A stretch of DNA of 64,000 bases from a bacterium (GTDB lineage: Bacteria > Zhuqueibacterota > QNDG01): positions 265 to 64,264 of the forward strand of contig JAGGVB010000195.1 in assembly GCA_021158245.1 (NCBI GenBank), given 5' to 3'. The notes beneath the pieces were generated by a model. The model searched no databases and was not told the origin of the DNA. It saw only the letters and a program-made list of their open reading frames with translations. A program made the position numbers and the translations under genes. Shown piece by piece: positions 402-10,504 of this stretch (positions within the stretch are counted from its first letter, which is position 1; the number at the start of each line of letters is the position of its first letter).

Positions 402-3400
402 ATGAAAAAAAGATATGCGTTGCTTTTTTCATCCCTTCTTTCGATTCTGATTATTTTAACATCTACCCACTATTTAATTGCCGGAACAACCGGCAAAGTA
501 AGAGGAATAATTACTGACGGGACAACGGGACAGCCTTTGATCGGCGCAAATATTATACTGGAAAATACCTTTCTCGGCGCAGCAGCTAATTTAAAGGGAG
601 AGTACTATATAATTAATGTACCGCCGGGAATTTATACTATCCGTGCAACTATGATGGGCTATAAATCTCTTAGAATACAAAATGTCAGGGTTTCGGTTGA
701 CTTGACTACTACAATAAATATTTCTATGAATCCTGCAGTAGTTGAAACAGGGAAAAGCGTTACTATTGTAGCAAAGAGAGAAATGGTTGTAAAAGATTTA
801 ACCGCTTCCACGGCTGTTGTTGATGCAGCTGCAATGAGGTCTCTTCCAATCTCTGAGGTTTCAGAAGCTGTTCAACTGCAGGCAGGAATTGTTCGTGATG
901 CAGGAGGCGGGCTTCATGTACGCGGGGGCAGGAGCGGAGAAGTAAGTTACTGGATAGACGGAGTTCCCGTAACAGATGTTTATGACGGCAGTTCTGTGGT
1001 TGAAGTAAATAAAGACATGGTTCAGGAACTGCAGGTTGTAAGCGGAGCCTTTAATGCCGAATATGGGCAGGCGATGTCAGGTATAGTTAATATAACAACT
1101 AAACAGGGAAATAATAAATTCGGAGGCTCTTTCACTTCTTATATTGGCGATCACATTAGCAGTCATGAATCAATATTCATGGGTATTAACGATATTAATC
1201 CCCTTGCTCTGAAAAATATCGAAGCAAGTATCCACGGCCCGATTGTCAAAGATAAAATATTTTTCTATGTGAATGCACGTTCATACAGATCAGACGGATG
1301 GCTTTATGGTAAACGCAAATACAATCCGGAAGCTTCAACAATTGCAATGCAGGGGATCAATGGTGACTGGCTGGAAGAAAACGCCCCTGACTATTTTGCC
1401 TCCAGTAAAGTTACAGACCCCGTGAATAATCTTCGTGGTTTCCAGTATATTTTGGGTACTAACAGGCAAATTGATTCTCTTGTCACATGGCAGATGCTGC
1501 CGGACTCCAAAAGAACTGTTCCTGACAGTTTCTACACTTATTACAACATGCTTAGAAATAATCATAAAAACGGTAAAGGCGACGGAGCCTATGTACCCAT
1601 GAACTGGAATAAAAAATTCTATGCACAGGCAAAATTGATTTACAGAATTACTCCGTCTTTGCGGTTAACGTATAATTTTATATATGATAATGTCCGATAC
1701 AATGACTATGAGAGAGATTTTCTGCTTAATCCTGACGGCGCAACAAGTAAATTCCGTGTCGGAGAAACACATATTGTGCAGTTGGTCCATACAATAAGCA
1801 ACAGGACATTTTACAAAATAGCTTTCTCTCATTATACAAAAGGATTTAAAAGGTATCTCTACGAAGACATGCATGACCCCGGATATGTTCATCCTGATTT
1901 TTCTCTGCAGCAGGCTTATTCATTTAAAACAGGAGGAACATCTAATACTAATTTCCAAAGAGAAACAGGAACATCTGTTCTCAAAGGAGATCTGACAAGC
2001 CAGATTACTAATACGCACCAGATAAAAACAGGTGTTGAATACAGGGTGTATAAAGTATCTCAACAGGATATCTCTTTAAGGCCCTCTGTTAATCAGTCTC
2101 AGATAGACCTTGTTTTTGACAACCCGTATATAAAGACACGCGTAATGCCTGACAGTACAATTTATTCAAGCAGATATGTTCATCATCCAAAAGCTATATC
2201 CGCTTATATTCAGGATAAGATGGAATTTAAAGATATGATTGTAAATATCGGTGTCAGATTCGACTATTTTTCTCCTGACGGAGTTGTACTTAATGATGAA
2301 AGCGATCCGACTATTACAAATCCTATACGTGCTGAAAACAGATATCACGATTGGGGAAGTGACGGAGTGCCCAACACTCACGATGCTGACGGTACGGAAG
2401 GCAACGGAATATGGGATGCAGGAGAACCTGCAGTCACTATCTCAGAGAGGGAAAATTATTGGTACGGCAGAGCAAAAAGCAAGTTTCAGGTTAGTCCCCG
2501 TATAGGCTTTTCATTCCCTATTACCGAAGGGGGAGTTATCCATTTTTCCTACGGCCACTTTTTCCAGGTACCAAGGTTTGAGCTGCTTTATCAGAACCCT
2601 GATTTTGAGCTCGGATCAGGAACGGGTAATGTAGGAATTATAGGCAATGCAGACCTTGAGCCGGAGCAGACCATCAGCGGAGAGCTGGGGATTCAGCAGA
2701 TGCTGAGTGATGATATAGCTTTATCCTTAACCGGTTATTTTCGCGATGTGAGGAACCTTACAGGAACAAGGGCTAAGGAGATAGTACTTTTCGGAGGAGC
2801 TGCAAAGTACAGTAAATTCATCAACAGTGATTTCGGATTTATCAGAGGTATTGTTGTGGCTCTTGATAAAAGATTCTCAAATAAGTTCAGTGCGTCAGTT
2901 GATTATACCATGCAGATTGCAAAAGGCACTAATTCAGATCCTGATCAGGCACGGAATGCGCTTGCAGGCGGAACCCTTCCTGAAGTTCAGCTTACTTCTT
3001 TAAACTGGGATCAGAAACATACTGTTAATGCATCTTTTTCATACAGTGATAAGAACTGGGGTTTCAGCCTTCTCGGGCAGTGGGGAAGCGGATTTCCATA
3101 CACACCGAGAGCTACTACAGACATATCCACCCTTCTTACAAACAGCGAGAGAAAACCGGGAACGTACAATGTTGATTTAAGGGCTTACAGGGATTTCAAA
3201 ATAGGATCAGGTAAATTGACTCTGTTTATGAGAGTTTTCAATCTGTTTGATACTTTAAATGAGCTTAATGTATACAATGATACAGGCCGCGCAGGATTTA
3301 CTACAGATGAATTAACAGCAGCATCAACCAATCCTTCGCAGTATATAAATTCTCTTAATCAATGGTTTACAAATGCAGCATTTTATTCTCAGCCGAGAAG

Positions 3401-3431
3401 AGTTGAGATAGGGTTTACATATTCTTTTTAG
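402..3431 (+). CDS. TonB-dependent receptor (carboxypeptidase-regulatory-like N-domain, plug, barrel)
   Basis: Signal peptide; GKVRGIITD..TGQPLIGANI; plug LHVRGGRSGEVSYWIDGVPV; GNADLEPEQT; C-terminal Phe (GFTYSF). Confidence 0.92.
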   Translation: MKKRYALLFSSLLSILIILTSTHYLIAGTTGKVRGIITDGTTGQPLIGANIILENTFLGAAANLKGEYYIINVPPGIYTIRATMMGYKSLRIQNVRVSVDLTTTINISMNPAVVETGKSVTIVAKREMVVKDLTASTAVVDAAAMRSLPISEVSEAVQLQAGIVRDAGGGLHVRGGRSGEVSYWIDGVPVTDVYDGSSVVEVNKDMVQELQVVSGAFNAEYGQAMSGIVNITTKQGNNKFGGSFTSYIGDHISSHESIFMGINDINPLALKNIEASIHGPIVKDKIFFYVNARSYRSDGWLYGKRKYNPEASTIAMQGINGDWLEENAPDYFASSKVTDPVNNLRGFQYILGTNRQIDSLVTWQMLPDSKRTVPDSFYTYYNMLRNNHKNGKGDGAYVPMNWNKKFYAQAKLIYRITPSLRLTYNFIYDNVRYNDYERDFLLNPDGATSKFRVGETHIVQLVHTISNRTFYKIAFSHYTKGFKRYLYEDMHDPGYVHPDFSLQQAYSFKTGGTSNTNFQRETGTSVLKGDLTSQITNTHQIKTGVEYRVYKVSQQDISLRPSVNQSQIDLVFDNPYIKTRVMPDSTIYSSRYVHHPKAISAYIQDKMEFKDMIVNIGVRFDYFSPDGVVLNDESDPTITNPIRAENRYHDWGSDGVPNTHDADGTEGNGIWDAGEPAVTISERENYWYGRAKSKFQVSPRIGFSFPITEGGVIHFSYGHFFQVPRFELLYQNPDFELGSGTGNVGIIGNADLEPEQTISGELGIQQMLSDDIALSLTGYFRDVRNLTGTRAKEIVLFGGAAKYSKFINSDFGFIRGIVVALDKRFSNKFSASVDYTMQIAKGTNSDPDQARNALAGGTLPEVQLTSLNWDQKHTVNASFSYSDKNWGFSLLGQWGSGFPYTPRATTDISTLLTNSERKPGTYNVDLRAYRDFKIGSGKLTLFMRVFNLFDTLNELNVYNDTGRAGFTTDELTAASTNPSQYINSLNQWFTNAAFYSQPRRVEIGFTYSF

Positions 3432-3446
3432 TACGGAGTTTATATA

Positions 3447-6400
3447 ATGAATAAAATATTAAACAGAACCATTATTGTACTCTTGTTACTCTCTTTCAGT
3501 TCGATATTTGCCCAAAGCGGGAGGCAATACAGGCGTTCTTCAGTAATGCGCGGGAATTTGGTGAAGACTGTATTTGGTAACTGGGGAGTAATCGGACAGC
3601 CTGCCGAGAAAGGCGACAGAGGGGCCTGGATTTATGACAACGACGGCTACATAGGAGACGTAAGCCCTTTGGTTGGTGCTGAAGTTGTTTCACAGGATAA
3701 GACATTCCACTCTGTTGTTGTATGCCCCGTTGACAGGCCGACAAAACAGCATGAGTTGTCGCCATCGGGGCAGTATTGGGGATTTGAACCTGTTGCAGGA
3801 TATATCAATGAAGGGAAAGAAGGCGTTTCGCTTTTCAGTGATCCTGCTTCATGGCCGAGTCTTTGGCCTGATAAAATGAACGATCCTGAAGATGCAGGCT
3901 GGCCGGGTTCATGGAATGGCTTTTTCGGAAAAACTACAACAGCATCTGAAGAGTGTTATTTTGTAATGGATGACAATAACGATCAGGAATTTAATTATTC
4001 TGAAAATAATAAATGGCATGTGGCATTTAAGCCTGATGCGGCTGATCCGTCCAGAAATGGATTGGGGCTCGTTGTAAAAGTCCGTGCGATGCAGTGGTCG
4101 GATTTTTTGGCTCAGGATTGTATTTTCTGGCTTTATGAAATAACAAACACAAGTACAACAGATTACAGTAAAGTTGTTTTCGGTATGCTTGTAGGCACAT
4201 ATGTGGGAGTAACATCTACTGAAAATTACAATGAATATGATGACGACTATTCATTTTTTGATGTTCAGAATGATTTGACTTTTACTGCAGATTATGATGA
4301 CAACTGCAGCAGAAATCCGCGCTGGGTTGGAGATGTTGGAGTCGTAGGTTATGCATTTCTCGAAAGTCCAGGCAATCCTTACGACGGAATAGACAATGAC
4401 CATGACTCTGACAGCAATCCTTATATACACGGCACAGGCCCGTTTTTCTCTGAGGATGATTTTAAGAGCAGTGTAATCATGCCTGGTGACAAAGTTGTTC
4501 TTATTGACGATAACTACAACAGAACAGTAGTGGAAGTGCCAAACTATGATACTACTTTTGTAACAAGAGGTACAACAACAGGCCAGCATGCAGCAATTAG
4601 TATAGTACCGGGGGAGACTGAACTTGCTGAAGGTAATGTGATTTTTAAGGACGGGAAGCAATCCATTAATCCCAATGCCTACGATGGAATAGATAATGAT
4701 CTTGACGGACTGATAGATGAAAATTATTATCTTCATTACAGGCAGATCAGGAAGGATCAAAAAGGGCATACTCTGATTGATATATTGAGCCCTGTACGCC
4801 ACAAGGACTATATCAATGGAATAGGTGTGAATGATCCCTTGATTGATGAAAGACGCGATGACGGTATTGACAATGATGGTGACTGGAACTCCGAGTATGA
4901 CGATGTGGGAGCAGACGGGATTATGGGTACAAACGACAGGGGAGAAGGAGACGGTATCCCCACTCCCGGAGAGCCCAATTTTGATCAGACGGATGTTGAT
5001 GAATCAGATCAGATCGGCCTTACAAGTTTTGAATATTTTACTCCGTCAAATGATTTTTCAATGGCTGATGATGAGGATTTATGGAAACGTCTTTCTCCCG
5101 GGCATTTTGAAGTACCTGAATCAATAGTTAACAATAAACCTCAGCGGGGTGAGGACGGAGACTTTTTTTACGGCTCAGGATACTTTCCTCTCAGGGCAGG
5201 AGAGACTCAGCGGTTTTCTCTTGCACTTGTTTACGGTGATGGCGGCGGGCCTGATATGGATATTACTGATTTAATGAACAATAGAAAAACAGTTCAGAAA
5301 ATATACGATAGTGATTATAGATTCCCGCCTGCCCCGGATAAACCGAAACTGAAGATTGTACCCGGAGATGGGAAGGTAACTCTTTACTGGGACAGAAAAT
5401 CCGAAGAATCTTATGATCCTGTTTTGCATGAATATGATTTTGAGGGTTACAAAATATACAAAGCTACTGACCATAATTTCAATGAAGTATTTGATGTAAC
5501 AGATGCAAGCGGTACTAAAATATCGTACAAACCTCTTGCCCAGTTTGATGTAAAAGATGAGTATGAGGGGTATTTCAGAGCAGGTGAAGATTTATTCCAG
5601 CAGAGCAAAGGAGCATCTTTTTATCTTGGTGAAAACAGCGGTTTAAAGCACAGTTTCGTTGATACTGATGTTGAAAACGGGAGACGGTATTTCTATGCTG
5701 TTGTGTCTTATGACAGAGGAAATGAAGAAACAAATATTTTCCCCAAAGAGTGTGACAAACGAATTGATGTCCTGCCCTCAGGAGAAGTAAAAACATTTCA
5801 GAATACAGCTGTTGTTATTCCAAATGCACCTGTAATTGGTTATAAACCTCCTGACGGCAGTGTTAAAATAAATTCAGATAATATCATCGGCACAGGATCT
5901 GTTTATTATAAGGTTGTTGATGAAGAAGCTTTGACGGGGCATAAATACAGAATTGAATTTTTTGATACTTCGGATGACGGAATTGACAATAATGATAATT
6001 GGGATCAGACTAAAGACGACGTGGGAACGGACGGTATTCCAAATTCAAATGACACAGACGATACCGAAAATAATGGTTTACCTGATTCAGGAGAGCCCAA
6101 TCTGGATTATTTCGATGCAGCCGAATACTTTGTACCAATTACCACATCTTATTCAGTTCGCGATTTGACCGGATTAACAGAGTTGTTTTACAGCAAGGAC
6201 ACTCTTTATGTAAGGCTGGCTCATAAACATTTAATAAAAAGTTCTGTAAAAGTTACAAATCAGAACGGTGAGGATGTCCCTGATAGTAAATTAAATATTG
6301 ATTATGTGAATGGAAAAATACGCGGCAAAAATAACGGTGATTTACTTTATGGAGAAAGCTATTCTATTACTTACCAATACTACCCTGTATACAGAAGCCT

Positions 6401-7301
6401 GTATATGGAAAAGAGCCCATATGCAGGGGAAACAAAGGATACATATAACTTCGATGGAATTTTCCTCTCTTTCCAGAATGAGTGGAATGTTATACTTGAT
6501 ACTTTAGCATCAGAATGGAGTACTCCGAACAAAGGCTATAATTTTACGGTAAATATAATTGATACATATTTCGGTTCAGAACATTTGCTTGGGTTAAGAC
6601 ATCCTTCCGATTATCAGATTATTTTTAATGATGCAATTGTAGATACTTCTCTTGAAATGACAAAGTATTTTGTAAAACCGATTCCGGTTAATTTCCGCAT
6701 CTGGAATAAGACTGACCGGAAGTTTATTGATTTTATCTATAATGATACTGACAGAAATCAGGTTCTTTCTCCTTATGATGAACTGATATTTGTAGAGGGA
6801 TATGAACCTGGTAAGACATTTTTTACATGGGATATATTTTTTACAAGCCTCACTGATACTACATACTCCTTTGGTACAGGAGATACCTTAACTATCAAAA
6901 TAAAAAAACCGTTCAGAGCCGGAGATATTTTTGAATTCAGTACTGAAACACCGAGTATTGATAATTCAGTTGCATCCAGTCAAATGGATGAGATAAAAGT
7001 CGTACCCAATCCTTATGTTTCTGCAACTGCCCATGAACTGCCTTTACCGCCTGCAATAACCAGCGGGCGCGGTGAAAGAAAAATAGATTTTATACATCTT
7101 CCTGTGAATTCAAAGGTCCATATATTCACTGCAATGGGTGAGCATGTAATTACTCTTGAACAGGACGGTTCAATGTTTAACGGCACTTTATCCTGGAATC
7201 TTAAAACAAAAGAGAATCTTGATGTTGCTTCAGGTATTTATTTTTACGTTGTAGAATCTCCTGCAGGAGTTAAGCGCGGGAAATTGGGAATAATTAAATA
7301 A
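3447..7301 (+). CDS. Large secreted protein with acidic DGIDND/GEP repeats, FN3-like segment and T9SS-like C-terminal domain
   Basis: SPI-type signal; repeated YDGIDND motifs; PPAPDKPKLKIVPGDGKVTLYWD; C-terminus IKVVPNPY...WNLKTKENLDVASGIYFYVVE. Confidence 0.8.
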   Translation: MNKILNRTIIVLLLLSFSSIFAQSGRQYRRSSVMRGNLVKTVFGNWGVIGQPAEKGDRGAWIYDNDGYIGDVSPLVGAEVVSQDKTFHSVVVCPVDRPTKQHELSPSGQYWGFEPVAGYINEGKEGVSLFSDPASWPSLWPDKMNDPEDAGWPGSWNGFFGKTTTASEECYFVMDDNNDQEFNYSENNKWHVAFKPDAADPSRNGLGLVVKVRAMQWSDFLAQDCIFWLYEITNTSTTDYSKVVFGMLVGTYVGVTSTENYNEYDDDYSFFDVQNDLTFTADYDDNCSRNPRWVGDVGVVGYAFLESPGNPYDGIDNDHDSDSNPYIHGTGPFFSEDDFKSSVIMPGDKVVLIDDNYNRTVVEVPNYDTTFVTRGTTTGQHAAISIVPGETELAEGNVIFKDGKQSINPNAYDGIDNDLDGLIDENYYLHYRQIRKDQKGHTLIDILSPVRHKDYINGIGVNDPLIDERRDDGIDNDGDWNSEYDDVGADGIMGTNDRGEGDGIPTPGEPNFDQTDVDESDQIGLTSFEYFTPSNDFSMADDEDLWKRLSPGHFEVPESIVNNKPQRGEDGDFFYGSGYFPLRAGETQRFSLALVYGDGGGPDMDITDLMNNRKTVQKIYDSDYRFPPAPDKPKLKIVPGDGKVTLYWDRKSEESYDPVLHEYDFEGYKIYKATDHNFNEVFDVTDASGTKISYKPLAQFDVKDEYEGYFRAGEDLFQQSKGASFYLGENSGLKHSFVDTDVENGRRYFYAVVSYDRGNEETNIFPKECDKRIDVLPSGEVKTFQNTAVVIPNAPVIGYKPPDGSVKINSDNIIGTGSVYYKVVDEEALTGHKYRIEFFDTSDDGIDNNDNWDQTKDDVGTDGIPNSNDTDDTENNGLPDSGEPNLDYFDAAEYFVPITTSYSVRDLTGLTELFYSKDTLYVRLAHKHLIKSSVKVTNQNGEDVPDSKLNIDYVNGKIRGKNNGDLLYGESYSITYQYYPVYRSLYMEKSPYAGETKDTYNFDGIFLSFQNEWNVILDTLASEWSTPNKGYNFTVNIIDTYFGSEHLLGLRHPSDYQIIFNDAIVDTSLEMTKYFVKPIPVNFRIWNKTDRKFIDFIYNDTDRNQVLSPYDELIFVEGYEPGKTFFTWDIFFTSLTDTTYSFGTGDTLTIKIKKPFRAGDIFEFSTETPSIDNSVASSQMDEIKVVPNPYVSATAHELPLPPAITSGRGERKIDFIHLPVNSKVHIFTAMGEHVITLEQDGSMFNGTLSWNLKTKENLDVASGIYFYVVESPAGVKRGKLGIIK

Positions 7302-7331
7302 TCGGTTATGTCAGATAACCCGGAGATATCC

Positions 7332-8360
7332 ATGCAAAATAAGATAAAAAAAATAACTTTCTTGCTTGTGATTCTGGCCGGAAGCCTTGCAGTGCAGAAA
7401 ATTGAAGCACAGTCAAAAGTGGGTACTTCATCAGCAGCGTTTCTTGGGATTGGAATTGGTTCACGTGCTGCTGCAATGGGAGGCGCTTTTACAGCATTAG
7501 CAAATGATGCATCTGCTTTGTATTATAATCCGGGCGGTATTGCGAGGATGGGAAAATCCCAGTTTGTTTTTTCTCATACTAACTGGATTGTTGATACAAA
7601 TCTGAACTGGATTGGCCTGGTAATTAAACTTGACAATTCCAATGCTGTCGGTTTGAGTATTACACAGCTTGATTACGGCCAGGAGGAAGTGACAAATGTT
7701 TATCATCCTGAGGGAACAGGTGAGATGTGGACAGCAAAAGACCTTGTTCTTGCTCTTTCATACAGCCGTTTGCTGACTGACAGATTTTCAATAGGCGGCA
7801 GTGCAAAATACATTCAGCAAAAACTCTGGAATGAATCGGCATCAGCATTCGCCATTGATGTAGGGCTGCTTTTTATTACTGATTTTAAGGACATGAAGAT
7901 AGGCATGAGTATTTCAAATTTTGGTAATGATATGCGAATGCAGGGAAAGGATCTTTTAAAGAGAATTGATATTGATCCTGATCATTTGGGAGATAACGAA
8001 ACCATTGTAGGGAATCTGAAAACCAATTCATGGCCTCTTCCCCTGTTTTTCCGCGTAGGCGTATCAATGGATGTTGTCAAAATCGCAAGGAACAAAATTA
8101 CATTAGCAGCAGATGCGTTCCGTCCAAGCAATAACTCCGGAAGTGTTAATGTCGGCGGAGAGTTTTCGTTTAATAATATGTTTTTCCTGAGAGGCGGGTA
8201 TAAATCTTTGTTTATGAAAAAAACAGAAGAGGGGTTTACAGCAGGTATTGGAGTAAATGTCCCTATGTCCGGCGGATATACATGGTGCGTTGATTATACT
8301 TATATGGATTTTGGAGTTTTTGAAAATATAAAAATGATTTCAGCATCAGTAAAATTTTAA
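7332..8360 (+). CDS. PorV/PorQ-family (FadL-like) outer-membrane beta-barrel
   Basis: GTSSAAFLGIGIGSRAAAMGGAFTALANDASALYYNPGG hallmark N-terminus; ends in Phe; ATG 7332 follows GGAG (ORF track starts at 7308). Confidence 0.85.
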   Translation: MQNKIKKITFLLVILAGSLAVQKIEAQSKVGTSSAAFLGIGIGSRAAAMGGAFTALANDASALYYNPGGIARMGKSQFVFSHTNWIVDTNLNWIGLVIKLDNSNAVGLSITQLDYGQEEVTNVYHPEGTGEMWTAKDLVLALSYSRLLTDRFSIGGSAKYIQQKLWNESASAFAIDVGLLFITDFKDMKIGMSISNFGNDMRMQGKDLLKRIDIDPDHLGDNETIVGNLKTNSWPLPLFFRVGVSMDVVKIARNKITLAADAFRPSNNSGSVNVGGEFSFNNMFFLRGGYKSLFMKKTEEGFTAGIGVNVPMSGGYTWCVDYTYMDFGVFENIKMISASVKF

Positions 8361-8446
8361 GGTTTTTTCAGGAGGGAGGTGAGAAATTCAAATTAATACG
8401 TGGTTTATATGAAAACAGGGGAATTTGACAATTTAGGAGGTAGGAA

Positions 8447-10504
8447 ATGAAAAGATTTACTCTTTTGGCAGTTTTAGTCTTACTGCTTGCAGTTGCTGCT
8501 CTTAATGCACAAACCGTGAATGTTACTTTTCTGGTAAATACAGCAGCCGTACCAGATACATTAGGTCCGAATTCTGTTGTACAATTAAGAGGAAGCGGCG
8601 GAGATTTAACATGGGATGGCGGCTCAGCGATTTTTCTCCATAATGTCGGGGGAGATTACTGGCAGGGTACGTATGCTTTTCCTGCGAACACAACAATTGA
8701 ATACAAATTCTATACTAACGCGGAACATGATACTGTATATGCGGGAGCAGGATGGGAGCATCAAGGCTGGGAAGGCGATCTGGCAGGAGGTAATCGTCAA
8801 TTAGTACTTGGTGGTGTTGACACTACATTAGACCTCCAGTTTGTAAATGGCTGGAAGCAGGGAGCAACACAGTTCGAAGCGCCTTATGAAACAAATGATA
8901 CTACTGCTGTCGTATATGTTCGAGTAAATATGCAGGGATGGGATGATTTTAATCCGAATACTCAGGTAATAGGATTACGAGGATCAAATACAAGTGATTG
9001 GGGAGAAACCGGGGATATTTCCTGGGGTACCACATATCCGTTAACAAGAGAAACAAATCATGTTAATGGCGGCAGCCAGAGATATTCAGGAGGCTATTTT
9101 TACTCAGGAGCTGTTCATGTGCCCAATACATATATTGGAGGAAGTATTCAATACAAAGTAGTTGTTCACAATGCAGGTGCTGATTTGAGCGAGGACTGGG
9201 GAAATATGGTGTATAACTCGGATCATCAGGATGTTGTGCGTGTCAGTGCAGATGATACGACTGCTCACTGGTTCTGGTTTGATGATCATAAACCAATTAT
9301 AGTGAATCATCAGGATACTGTAATTGTTAATTTCCAGGCAGATATGAGCAAAGCAATTACAAACCGCGGATTTGCTTACGGCGATACAATTGAAGTCAGG
9401 TCCGGTTACTTTGGAACAGCGTCAGCGGTTAGTATTAAACAAATGGTACGCCAGGGATTTACAAATATTTATGCTGCAACTGATACAATTATTAGTTCAG
9501 TCGGGTCTGACCTGGATTATCAGTATTATCTGATTAAGAACGGTATTGAATACAGAGAGGTTTATTATAACTTCTACTATGCAGGACAGACTACAGGTGA
9601 GGCAGAAAGAAGAGCTGCTGATATAAGTTCAAAATCTCTGACAGTACAGGATATTTCCGATAGTCAGACAGACCTGCACAGAATGCCGCTTTTCAGAAAC
9701 ACTCAGACTTTAAGCCAGGACGTACTTGTTACATTTACATGCGATGTGCGGCCTGCTATTTATCAGCTCAAAGCCGGTGCTACTCTTGATGATATTCAGG
9801 GAAACCTTGATATATCAGACCCGGATTCTGTAATGATCCTTGGAGCTGCTATCAACGGCCCTGCAAGCGGCGGCTGGGGGACATGGGGCCCCGGCCTTAT
9901 GTCAGATGCAGCTCATCAGATGTTTGATGACGGCACTAATGGCGATGCTGTTGCCGGGGATAGTATTTTTACTCTCCAGATTCAATTCTACAAAGATAGC
10001 ACAAATAATGTCATAGGCCAGGAATTCAAGTTTGGAATCGGCGGCGGTGATAATGAAGGCGGTAAAGGCGGATACGGAAATAATCATATTGAAAATATTG
10101 ACGATACTCAGAATACCTATACCATTGCTTCGCAGTTCGGAAGCATTAATCCTGCCTTCTACAGTGCATGGGATTATGATAATCAGGGCCCGTCAACTGG
10201 TGTTGAAGAAGATGGAATAGTGCCGTATGTTTTCTCTCTGCAGAACAACTATCCTAATCCGTTCAATCCCGAAACAACAATAAGATATACTTTGGGATCA
10301 GCGGAAAAGGTTAATCTTGCTGTTTACGACATGCTGGGGCGCAAGATTGCTACATTAGTCAATGCAAACCAGAAAGCAGGAGCATATACAGTTCGCTGGA
10401 CAGGTAAAGATGATGCAGGAAGGAGTGCAAGTTCAGGAATGTATATATACCGCATTGAAGCAGGAAGCTTCAAAGTTTCGCACAAGATGGTATTGATGAA
10501 ATAG
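8447..10504 (+). CDS. Non-catalytic T9SS-sorted protein with tandem CBM20-like domains (putative glucan-binding protein)
   Basis: Domain 1 has CBM20-like W..A..L....YW...IEYKF...WE....NR; four repeated V.V.F..D/N domain starts; FDDGTNGDAVAGDSIFT motif; CTD LQNNYPNPFNPETTIRY...SSGMYIYRI. Confidence 0.75.
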   Translation: MKRFTLLAVLVLLLAVAALNAQTVNVTFLVNTAAVPDTLGPNSVVQLRGSGGDLTWDGGSAIFLHNVGGDYWQGTYAFPANTTIEYKFYTNAEHDTVYAGAGWEHQGWEGDLAGGNRQLVLGGVDTTLDLQFVNGWKQGATQFEAPYETNDTTAVVYVRVNMQGWDDFNPNTQVIGLRGSNTSDWGETGDISWGTTYPLTRETNHVNGGSQRYSGGYFYSGAVHVPNTYIGGSIQYKVVVHNAGADLSEDWGNMVYNSDHQDVVRVSADDTTAHWFWFDDHKPIIVNHQDTVIVNFQADMSKAITNRGFAYGDTIEVRSGYFGTASAVSIKQMVRQGFTNIYAATDTIISSVGSDLDYQYYLIKNGIEYREVYYNFYYAGQTTGEAERRAADISSKSLTVQDISDSQTDLHRMPLFRNTQTLSQDVLVTFTCDVRPAIYQLKAGATLDDIQGNLDISDPDSVMILGAAINGPASGGWGTWGPGLMSDAAHQMFDDGTNGDAVAGDSIFTLQIQFYKDSTNNVIGQEFKFGIGGGDNEGGKGGYGNNHIENIDDTQNTYTIASQFGSINPAFYSAWDYDNQGPSTGVEEDGIVPYVFSLQNNYPNPFNPETTIRYTLGSAEKVNLAVYDMLGRKIATLVNANQKAGAYTVRWTGKDDAGRSASSGMYIYRIEAGSFKVSHKMVLMK

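Follow-up and report, generated by a model that had tools for sequence, protein, structure and literature searches.

A portable acidic module shared by a TonB-dependent receptor and its secreted partner protein in loops predicted to be coil

Acidic calcium loops and the present locus

Ca2+ is bound by loops of the DxDxDG type in extracellular proteins of many unrelated folds, and such loops evolve readily. In the form Dx[DN]xDG, they are short, regularly spaced units rich in Asp, Asn, and Gly, which are embedded in the loops of folds that are unrelated and for the most part extracellular, and which are readily gained, lost, and multiplied (Rigden, Woodhead, Wong and Galperin 2011, PMC3123361). 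Here, we describe a module that resembles them in all of these traits of composition, spacing, setting, and evolutionary mobility. It was analyzed in a 64,000-nucleotide stretch of DNA (the window) from a bacterium of the lineage Zhuqueibacterota (assembly GCA_021158245.1, contig JAGGVB010000195.1, positions 265 to 64,264 of the forward strand), where it occurs once in a TonB-dependent receptor and twice in the product of the adjacent gene, a secreted protein referred to below as the partner. The short forms of the module, DLNGNGxQDxGE and DNDGDGRID, fit the logic of the Dx[DN]xDG loop, as does DNDLDGLIDE of the partner, whereas the long module, which has DxGxDG together with a GEP cap, does not conform to the strict motif. 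The module is also a cassette of 25 to 33 residues with two subtypes rather than a single loop of 6 to 12 residues.

Thrombospondin type 3 repeats are tandem acidic Ca-binding units that occur in short and long versions, are extracellular, and adopt a non-regular, ion-dependent structure. The module likewise has acidic units in short and long versions, but it does not match the model of these repeats (TSP_3, PF02412; E ≤ 10), contains no Cys residues, where the repeats are stapled by disulfides, and follows a different consensus. It differs from EF-hands and dockerins in that flanking helices and a match to the Pfam families are both absent. The module, therefore, resembles acidic loops of the DxDxDG and thrombospondin type, yet by strict motif and by profile it belongs to neither group.

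In functional terms, the receptor copy is best compared with BtuB, a TonB-dependent receptor whose acidic extracellular loops are ordered by Ca2+ (PDB 1NQG). The loop sequences of the two receptors are unrelated, however, and in BtuB the Ca sites draw their Asp residues from separate loops, whereas the module described here is one contiguous cassette. With regard to gene organization, the locus is similar to SusC/SusD of Bacteroidota, in which a TonB-dependent receptor is encoded together with a surface partner in a glycan (starch) utilization locus. In contrast to SusD, which is a lipoprotein, the partner is a 1,284-amino-acid protein with a signal peptide, a type IX secretion system (T9SS)-like C-terminal domain, and a PorV-like barrel of its own. 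Positions below are those of the window, and model confidence is given as the predicted local distance difference test (pLDDT) of AlphaFold2 (AF2):

402 to 3431, + strand: TonB-dependent receptor, 1,009 amino acids, with Pfam domains PF13715 (CarboxypepD_reg, N-terminal), PF07715 (Plug), and PF25183 (OMP_b-brl_4)
2349 to 2429, + strand: receptor module, long form, DWGSDGVPNTHDADGTEGNGIWDAGEP, residues 650 to 676, in the 69-residue loop 625 to 693
3447 to 7301, + strand: secreted partner, 1,284 amino acids, without annotated family; bears a signal peptide and, at the C-terminus, a divergent T9SS-like domain
4899 to 4976, + strand: partner module at site 1, DDVGADGIMGTNDRGEGDGIPTPGEP, residues 485 to 510, subtype GADGxxGTxDxGEGDGxPTxGEP, coil, pLDDT 65 to 69
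6015 to 6098, + strand: partner module at site 2, DDVGTDGIPNSNDTDDTENNGLPDSGEP, residues 857 to 884, subtype GSDGxxNTxDxDGTEGNGxPDxGEP, coil, pLDDT 60 to 71
7308 to 8360, + strand: outer-membrane barrel of the PorV/PorQ family (NF033709 match), third gene of a conserved trio

Three copies of one module and their length states

The similarity of the three copies is far beyond chance and is not compositional noise. In a composition-adjusted BLASTP comparison of receptor and partner, the same segments were aligned, with E values of 2e-7 for the receptor copy and site 2 and of 1e-3 for the receptor copy and site 1. Shuffled sequences contained the module pattern at 1.5e-4 per receptor and 1.6e-3 per partner, compared to one and two observed occurrences, respectively. 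The preliminary description of this DNA had reported the three matching copies, which were borne out by translation, BLASTP, shuffling, and conservation in other genomes; the leading His that it quoted for the receptor copy is encoded one codon upstream of position 2349. No fourth copy was found in a six-frame scan of the whole 64-kb window. It had also been noticed that both partner copies follow a DDGIDN.D.W leader, and this is indeed the case, with DDGIDNDGDW preceding site 1 and DDGIDNNDNW preceding site 2:

4857 to 4898, + strand: leader before the site-1 module of the partner, DDGIDNDGDWNSEY
5973 to 6014, + strand: leader before the site-2 module of the partner, DDGIDNNDNWDQTK

The module is a Cys-free, Asp/Gly-rich segment of about 25 to 33 residues, with the consensus DDvGxDGxxxTxDx(D)G(T)EG[DN]GxP[DT]xGEPNxD, an Asp content of 14 to 27%, and almost no Lys or Arg. 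The consensus sequences of the site-1 and site-2 subtypes comprise 23 and 25 residues, respectively. The receptor module is of the site-2 subtype; its mean core identity is 63% to site 2 and 45% to site 1, while identities within a subtype amount to 68 to 70%.

A profile of 33 columns, built from 113 module copies, was searched against 1.84 billion representative proteins (E ≤ 1e-3) and retrieved only 261 matches. The module is a specific conserved signature that is described in no domain or structure database. NCBIfam yielded no match for the module segments (E ≤ 1), and among PDB sequences nothing meaningful was found with either the module profile or the tandem array of a receptor from another genome (P0244, described below). 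Assignment to the RTX beta-roll was rejected because the GGxGxD nonapeptide periodicity is absent. Literature searches turned up no account of either the module or the trio; in the paper on the Caldithrix genome, BtuB and thiamine receptors are the only ones mentioned.

Could such segments have arisen independently, as Asp/Gly-rich Ca loops that look alike through chemical constraint and share neither origin nor portability? Motifs of the Dx[DN]xDG type have been argued to be multiply convergent, helped by the single-nucleotide interchange of Asp and Gly (PMC3123361), and the segments are short and, at 14 to 27% Asp, compositionally biased. We nevertheless regard convergence as improbable. The long receptor form and site 2 have identical spacing and are 63% identical over 25 residues, which is nearly the level found within a subtype, and the E value of 2e-7 was obtained after adjustment for composition. 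A 33-column profile with just 261 matches in 1.84e9 proteins is specific and does not capture generic acidic low complexity. Moreover, the site-1 subtype represents a distinct alternative solution, so chemistry forces no single sequence.

The structural setting of the copies was evaluated using AF2 models. The receptor model (pLDDT 78) contains 22 barrel strands, with long loops strictly alternating with turns of 2 to 5 residues, and Foldseek matched it to solved TonB-dependent receptors (PqqU, PirA, FepA, and BtuB; E of approximately 1e-29). With its plug domain and 22-strand barrel, the protein is a TonB-dependent receptor. Loop 625 to 693, which contains the module, lies between strand 11 (613 to 624) and strand 12 (694 to 706), with 4-residue turns on either side, and is modeled as coil with a pLDDT of 70 to 84. 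From the strand count and canonical receptor topology, we infer that it corresponds to extracellular loop 6. Both partner modules are located within long coil excursions of about 60 to 77 residues (pLDDT 60 to 71). According to DSSP, the modules are coil, save for one helix of 3 to 4 residues near each segment. The location of the loops, for which the preliminary description had proposed modeling, is thereby predicted for all three copies.

Conservation of the module was assessed across related genomes. The partner family comprises 4,877 homologues, which are all named hypothetical, where a name is given, and derive mostly from metagenome-assembled genomes labeled KSB1, Marinimicrobia, and Gemmatimonadota. 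A relative of the partner was present in 392 species of a species-level genome scan, belonging to KSB1, Marinimicrobia, Ignavibacteria, Calditrichota, and Fidelibacterota. The locus survey covered 80 fetched loci (L001 to L080), and in all 80, where the contig reaches far enough, the gene order receptor, partner, PorV-like barrel is kept. Homologues encoded in other genomes retain all three module sites. Site 1 of the partner is near-universal in the form of the block DDGIDNDGDWNxxxDDVGADGxxxTxDxGEGDGxPTxGEPNFDxTDVDES. The long form of site 2 is found in KSB1 and in some of the Marinimicrobia; elsewhere the site is intermediate or takes the form of a single loop such as DGIDNDGDGRIDAAD, and in Ignavibacteria-type loci it is absent except for a degenerate 26-residue remnant in L078.

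Loop 6 of the receptor also exists in three states. It comprises 39 residues with the long module in the KSB1-type clade, 25 residues with one HDLNGNGxQDxGEP unit in most lineages, and 10 residues without a unit in five Ignavibacteria-type loci. The closest relatives of the receptor keep the long form, and more distant homologues have a form that is 14 residues shorter. The length states of loop 6 and of site 2 occur at fixed alignment positions. Judged by the long, short, and absent states of loop 6 across lineages, the long receptor form is derived, a single EF-hand-like unit having been expanded by 14 residues in the KSB1-type clade. The module as a whole may be viewed as a variable-copy cassette built of EF-hand-like or DxDxDG-like units, with one unit in DLNGNGxQDxGE or DGIDNDGDGxID, two in the long form of this window, and many in the tandem array of the 1,403-amino-acid receptor P0244. 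The ligand spacing of the short form DLNGNGxQDxGE (example sequence, DLNGNGIQDPGEP) is EF-hand-like, with D1, N3, N5, G6, D9, and E12. In three marine loci of the Marinimicrobia type (L055, L056, and L059), loop 6 reads CSNFDGYCGDNE, and a Cys pair replaces the Asp/Asn unit that resembles a set of Ca ligands. This replacement suggests that loop 6 needs a staple of some kind and is consistent with a structural stapling role.

Occurrence in other proteins and relations between copies

The categories of module hosts were determined for the best 150 of the 261 profile matches. Partner-like proteins account for 70 of these, including a distant family of about 990 amino acids with a canonical T9SS C-terminal domain. 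Three are receptors, at least five are PorV-like or OmpA-type barrels (P0272, P0341, P0375, P0387, and P0265), and approximately 15 are proteins of about 400 amino acids with pseudopilin-like N-termini. Further hosts include PKD giants, a NosD/beta-helix protein, an SdrD_B protein, and an fn3 protein. In P0272, which scores as a member of the PorV/PorQ family, the module is carried in a loop between the two stretches matched by the hidden Markov model (HMM). Another module-bearing PorV-like protein, P0387, is encoded on a 1.5-kb contig. The pseudopilin-like proteins (P0309 and kin) matched no Pfam family; in P0309, P0346, P0352, P0354, P0362, P0370, P0373, and P0378, a module of the site-1 type is located at residues 90 to 120, approximately, and the N-terminus of P0309 weakly matches Verru_Chthon cassette protein A.

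The 1,403-amino-acid TonB-dependent receptor P0244 (L085:6172-10383), of marine metagenomic origin, contains about 400 inserted residues composed of tandem units. In this array, FxDxNGNGxFDxGEP units are interspersed with two long modules, and the array occupies a loop other than loop 6. P0244 heads a very divergent trio that includes a module-bearing partner of 856 amino acids and a PorV-like barrel, with glycine-cleavage genes and a BNR protein nearby. A member of the distant partner-like family, P0274 (L087:6001-8982; about 990 amino acids), is 26 to 31% identical to the partner and carries one module at approximately residues 330 to 370. Its T9SS type A C-terminal domain scored 31.5 bits, above the cut-off. 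P0274 is encoded on its own, its neighborhood lacking both a receptor and a PorV gene, and another module-bearing partner-like protein is encoded next to a receptor without the loop-6 unit.

The module is a real, specific, and portable cassette of variable copy number; it resides in surface proteins, in loops predicted to be coil, and trio components are enriched among its hosts. This agrees with the earlier proposal of a portable insertion shared by two unrelated folds: the hosts are a barrel loop and a beta-sandwich-rich protein, the long, short, and absent states are documented, and other surface proteins carry the module as well. The co-occurrence in receptor/partner pairs, for which a test with an HMM had been proposed, was found in part. 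Enrichment in trio components was evident, but the module is also present in unrelated proteins and in unpaired partners.

Enrichment of this kind raises the question of whether the modules of receptor loop 6, the partner, and some PorV-like barrels hold the complex together through shared or bridging Ca2+. The trio genes lie side by side in all 80 loci where the contig allows it, trio components make up more than half of the best 150 of 261 matches, and the very divergent second trio has modules in receptor and partner alike. In addition, the receptor copy shares the partner's site-2 subtype, and in the five Ignavibacteria-type loci without a loop-6 unit, site 2 is not intact either (missing from four, degenerate in L078), although this co-absence may reflect a single phylogenetic event. 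If the copies formed a latch, their forms might be expected to vary together. No covariation of long receptor forms with long site-2 forms was found across loci; the receptor/site-2 combinations were long/long in 11 loci, long/short in 5, short/long in 18, and short/short in 16. At the amino acid level, receptor and site-2 copies were not significantly more identical within than between genomes (0.540 versus 0.526; P = 0.10). Pairing is also dispensable, as indicated by the lone partner-like protein and the one beside a module-less receptor, and the module occurs in unrelated proteins. We therefore consider a docking function unlikely, and the Ca-bridged contact between receptor and partner that had been suggested previously finds no support in the form combinations, the identity test, or the unpaired module-bearing partners.

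The same comparisons bear on exchange of modules within the locus, which had likewise been suggested. A nucleotide-level excess of identity between receptor and site-2 copies (P = 6e-4) was located in the third codon positions and was attributed to shared codon usage. By the within- versus between-genome identity test, no ongoing exchange between receptor and partner was detectable. Within the partner, however, copies of the site-1 type were found at site 2 (L003, L023, and L061) and copies of the site-2 type at site 1 (L055, L056, and L059). In L003, site 2 is near-identical to its own site 1 (8615 to 8707 and 9731 to 9823; GMDGIPNTGDTGEGDGVPTPGEP versus GMDGIPNTDDTGEGDGVPTPGEP). These swaps between partner sites point to intragenic conversion, which is likely for L003. 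Of the proposed exchange, then, the site-2 subtype of the receptor copy (63% identity) and the subtype swaps in the partner speak for past events, whereas no sign of recent transfer between receptor and partner was seen. Because they are of the same subtype, the receptor copy and partner site 2 probably go back to one ancestral module that was transferred or duplicated long ago.

Calcium and the possible role of the cassette in the locus

Our preferred explanation, which we hold with moderate confidence, is that the module is a homologous, unannotated acidic cassette that forms Ca2+-rigidified surface loops. Acidic side chains and backbone carbonyls would chelate Ca2+ from the medium, and the bound ion would rigidify surface loops that are otherwise floppy, by analogy with the Ca2+-ordered extracellular loops of BtuB. 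Rigidification of this type appears to be the most economical mechanism. Ca2+ binding by the module is plausible in view of its EF-hand-like spacing, its strong acidity, and the known behavior of such loops (PMC3123361).

Several observations weigh against this explanation. None of the modules contains the strict Dx[DN]xDG motif; they have DxGxDG instead and thus Gly at ligand position 3. A Pfam hmmscan of the three segments at E ≤ 10 returned zero families and, therefore, no EF-hand, TSP_3, or dockerin. The extracellular placement of the receptor module follows from strand counting and not from a membrane-embedded model. Finally, a purely structural role leaves the enrichment of the module in all three trio components unexplained.

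The gene neighborhood raises a different possibility. The trio lies within an alpha-glucan utilization locus; where the neighborhoods of the trio and its close orthologues were read, the neighbors were alpha-amylase, pullulanase, GH97, and CBM20 genes. In the window, genes for CBM20 and GH13-like T9SS proteins are located downstream of the PorV-like barrel gene. Module-bound Ca2+ might accordingly coordinate hydroxyls of alpha-glucans, so that the receptor loop and the partner would share a substrate-binding device. Ca-mediated sugar recognition is an established mechanism, known from C-type lectins and CBM36. However, trios of other gene contexts, pseudopilin-like proteins, and PKD giants have the module as well. 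Many orthologues from starch contexts do without site 2 and the long receptor form, and a conserved aromatic platform is not evident. A ligand site of this kind thus seems quite improbable to us.

A more speculative extension, to which we assign a similarly low likelihood, would see the cassettes as a Ca2+ "Velcro" of a SusD-less uptake machine. Those on loop 6, on the T9SS-type partner, and on some PorV-like barrels would be cross-linked to each other or to anionic lipopolysaccharide, and ambient calcium would control assembly or the movement of a receptor lid. If calcium does control assembly or substrate capture, this would bear on polysaccharide uptake by uncultured heterotrophs. Sediments and the ocean harbor the carriers in abundance; these include KSB1, Marinimicrobia, Ignavibacteria, Calditrichota, and related phyla.

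The SusD-less trio is the larger story around the module, which appears to mark surface-exposed loops in outer-membrane uptake systems that form a very large family without annotation. Once defined, the module can be turned into an annotation profile for domain databases and provides testable handles on the external face of the receptor. It also offers a clear example of putative Ca-loop units that expand, contract, and move among unrelated surface proteins.

With regard to the remaining members of the locus, the product of 7308 to 8360 scored 209.9 bits against NF033709 (cut-off, 90) and is a PorV/PorQ protein; the PorV-like barrel of this genome is module-free. No Pfam or NCBIfam match to SusD/RagB was obtained for the four proteins encoded at 402 to 10504 (receptor, partner, PorV-like barrel, and CBM20 protein). 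The partner is modeled as a beta-rich, beta-sandwich-containing surface protein (pLDDT 79.5). Foldseek retrieved only generic Fn3/Ig arrays for this model (query TM score, TMq, below 0.1), which gave no functional clue, no relative was found among PDB sequences in a profile search, and no Pfam family was matched. The C-terminal domain of the partner scored below the cut-offs of Por_Secre_tail (17.5 bits; cut-off, 23) and CHU_C (19.2 bits; cut-off, 27).

In addition to the two modules and their leaders, the partner contains two further acidic loops:

4383 to 4421, + strand: first DGIDND acidic loop of the partner, DGIDNDHDSDSNP, AF2 pLDDT below 50
4683 to 4724, + strand: partner loop DGIDNDLDGLIDEN, containing DNDLDG at residues 416 to 421

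The sequence DGIDNDGD is present at the first of these loops in nearly all of the 71 aligned partner sequences. DNDLDG in the second is the sole strict Dx[DN]xDG match in receptor and partner, as determined by a regular-expression search. An open reading frame of 183 amino acids (4251 to 4802, - strand) is antisense to the part of the partner gene that encodes the acidic DGIDND region. It was rejected as a real gene owing to its position opposite the acidic repeats and is most likely a spurious product of repetitive GAT/GAC-rich coding.

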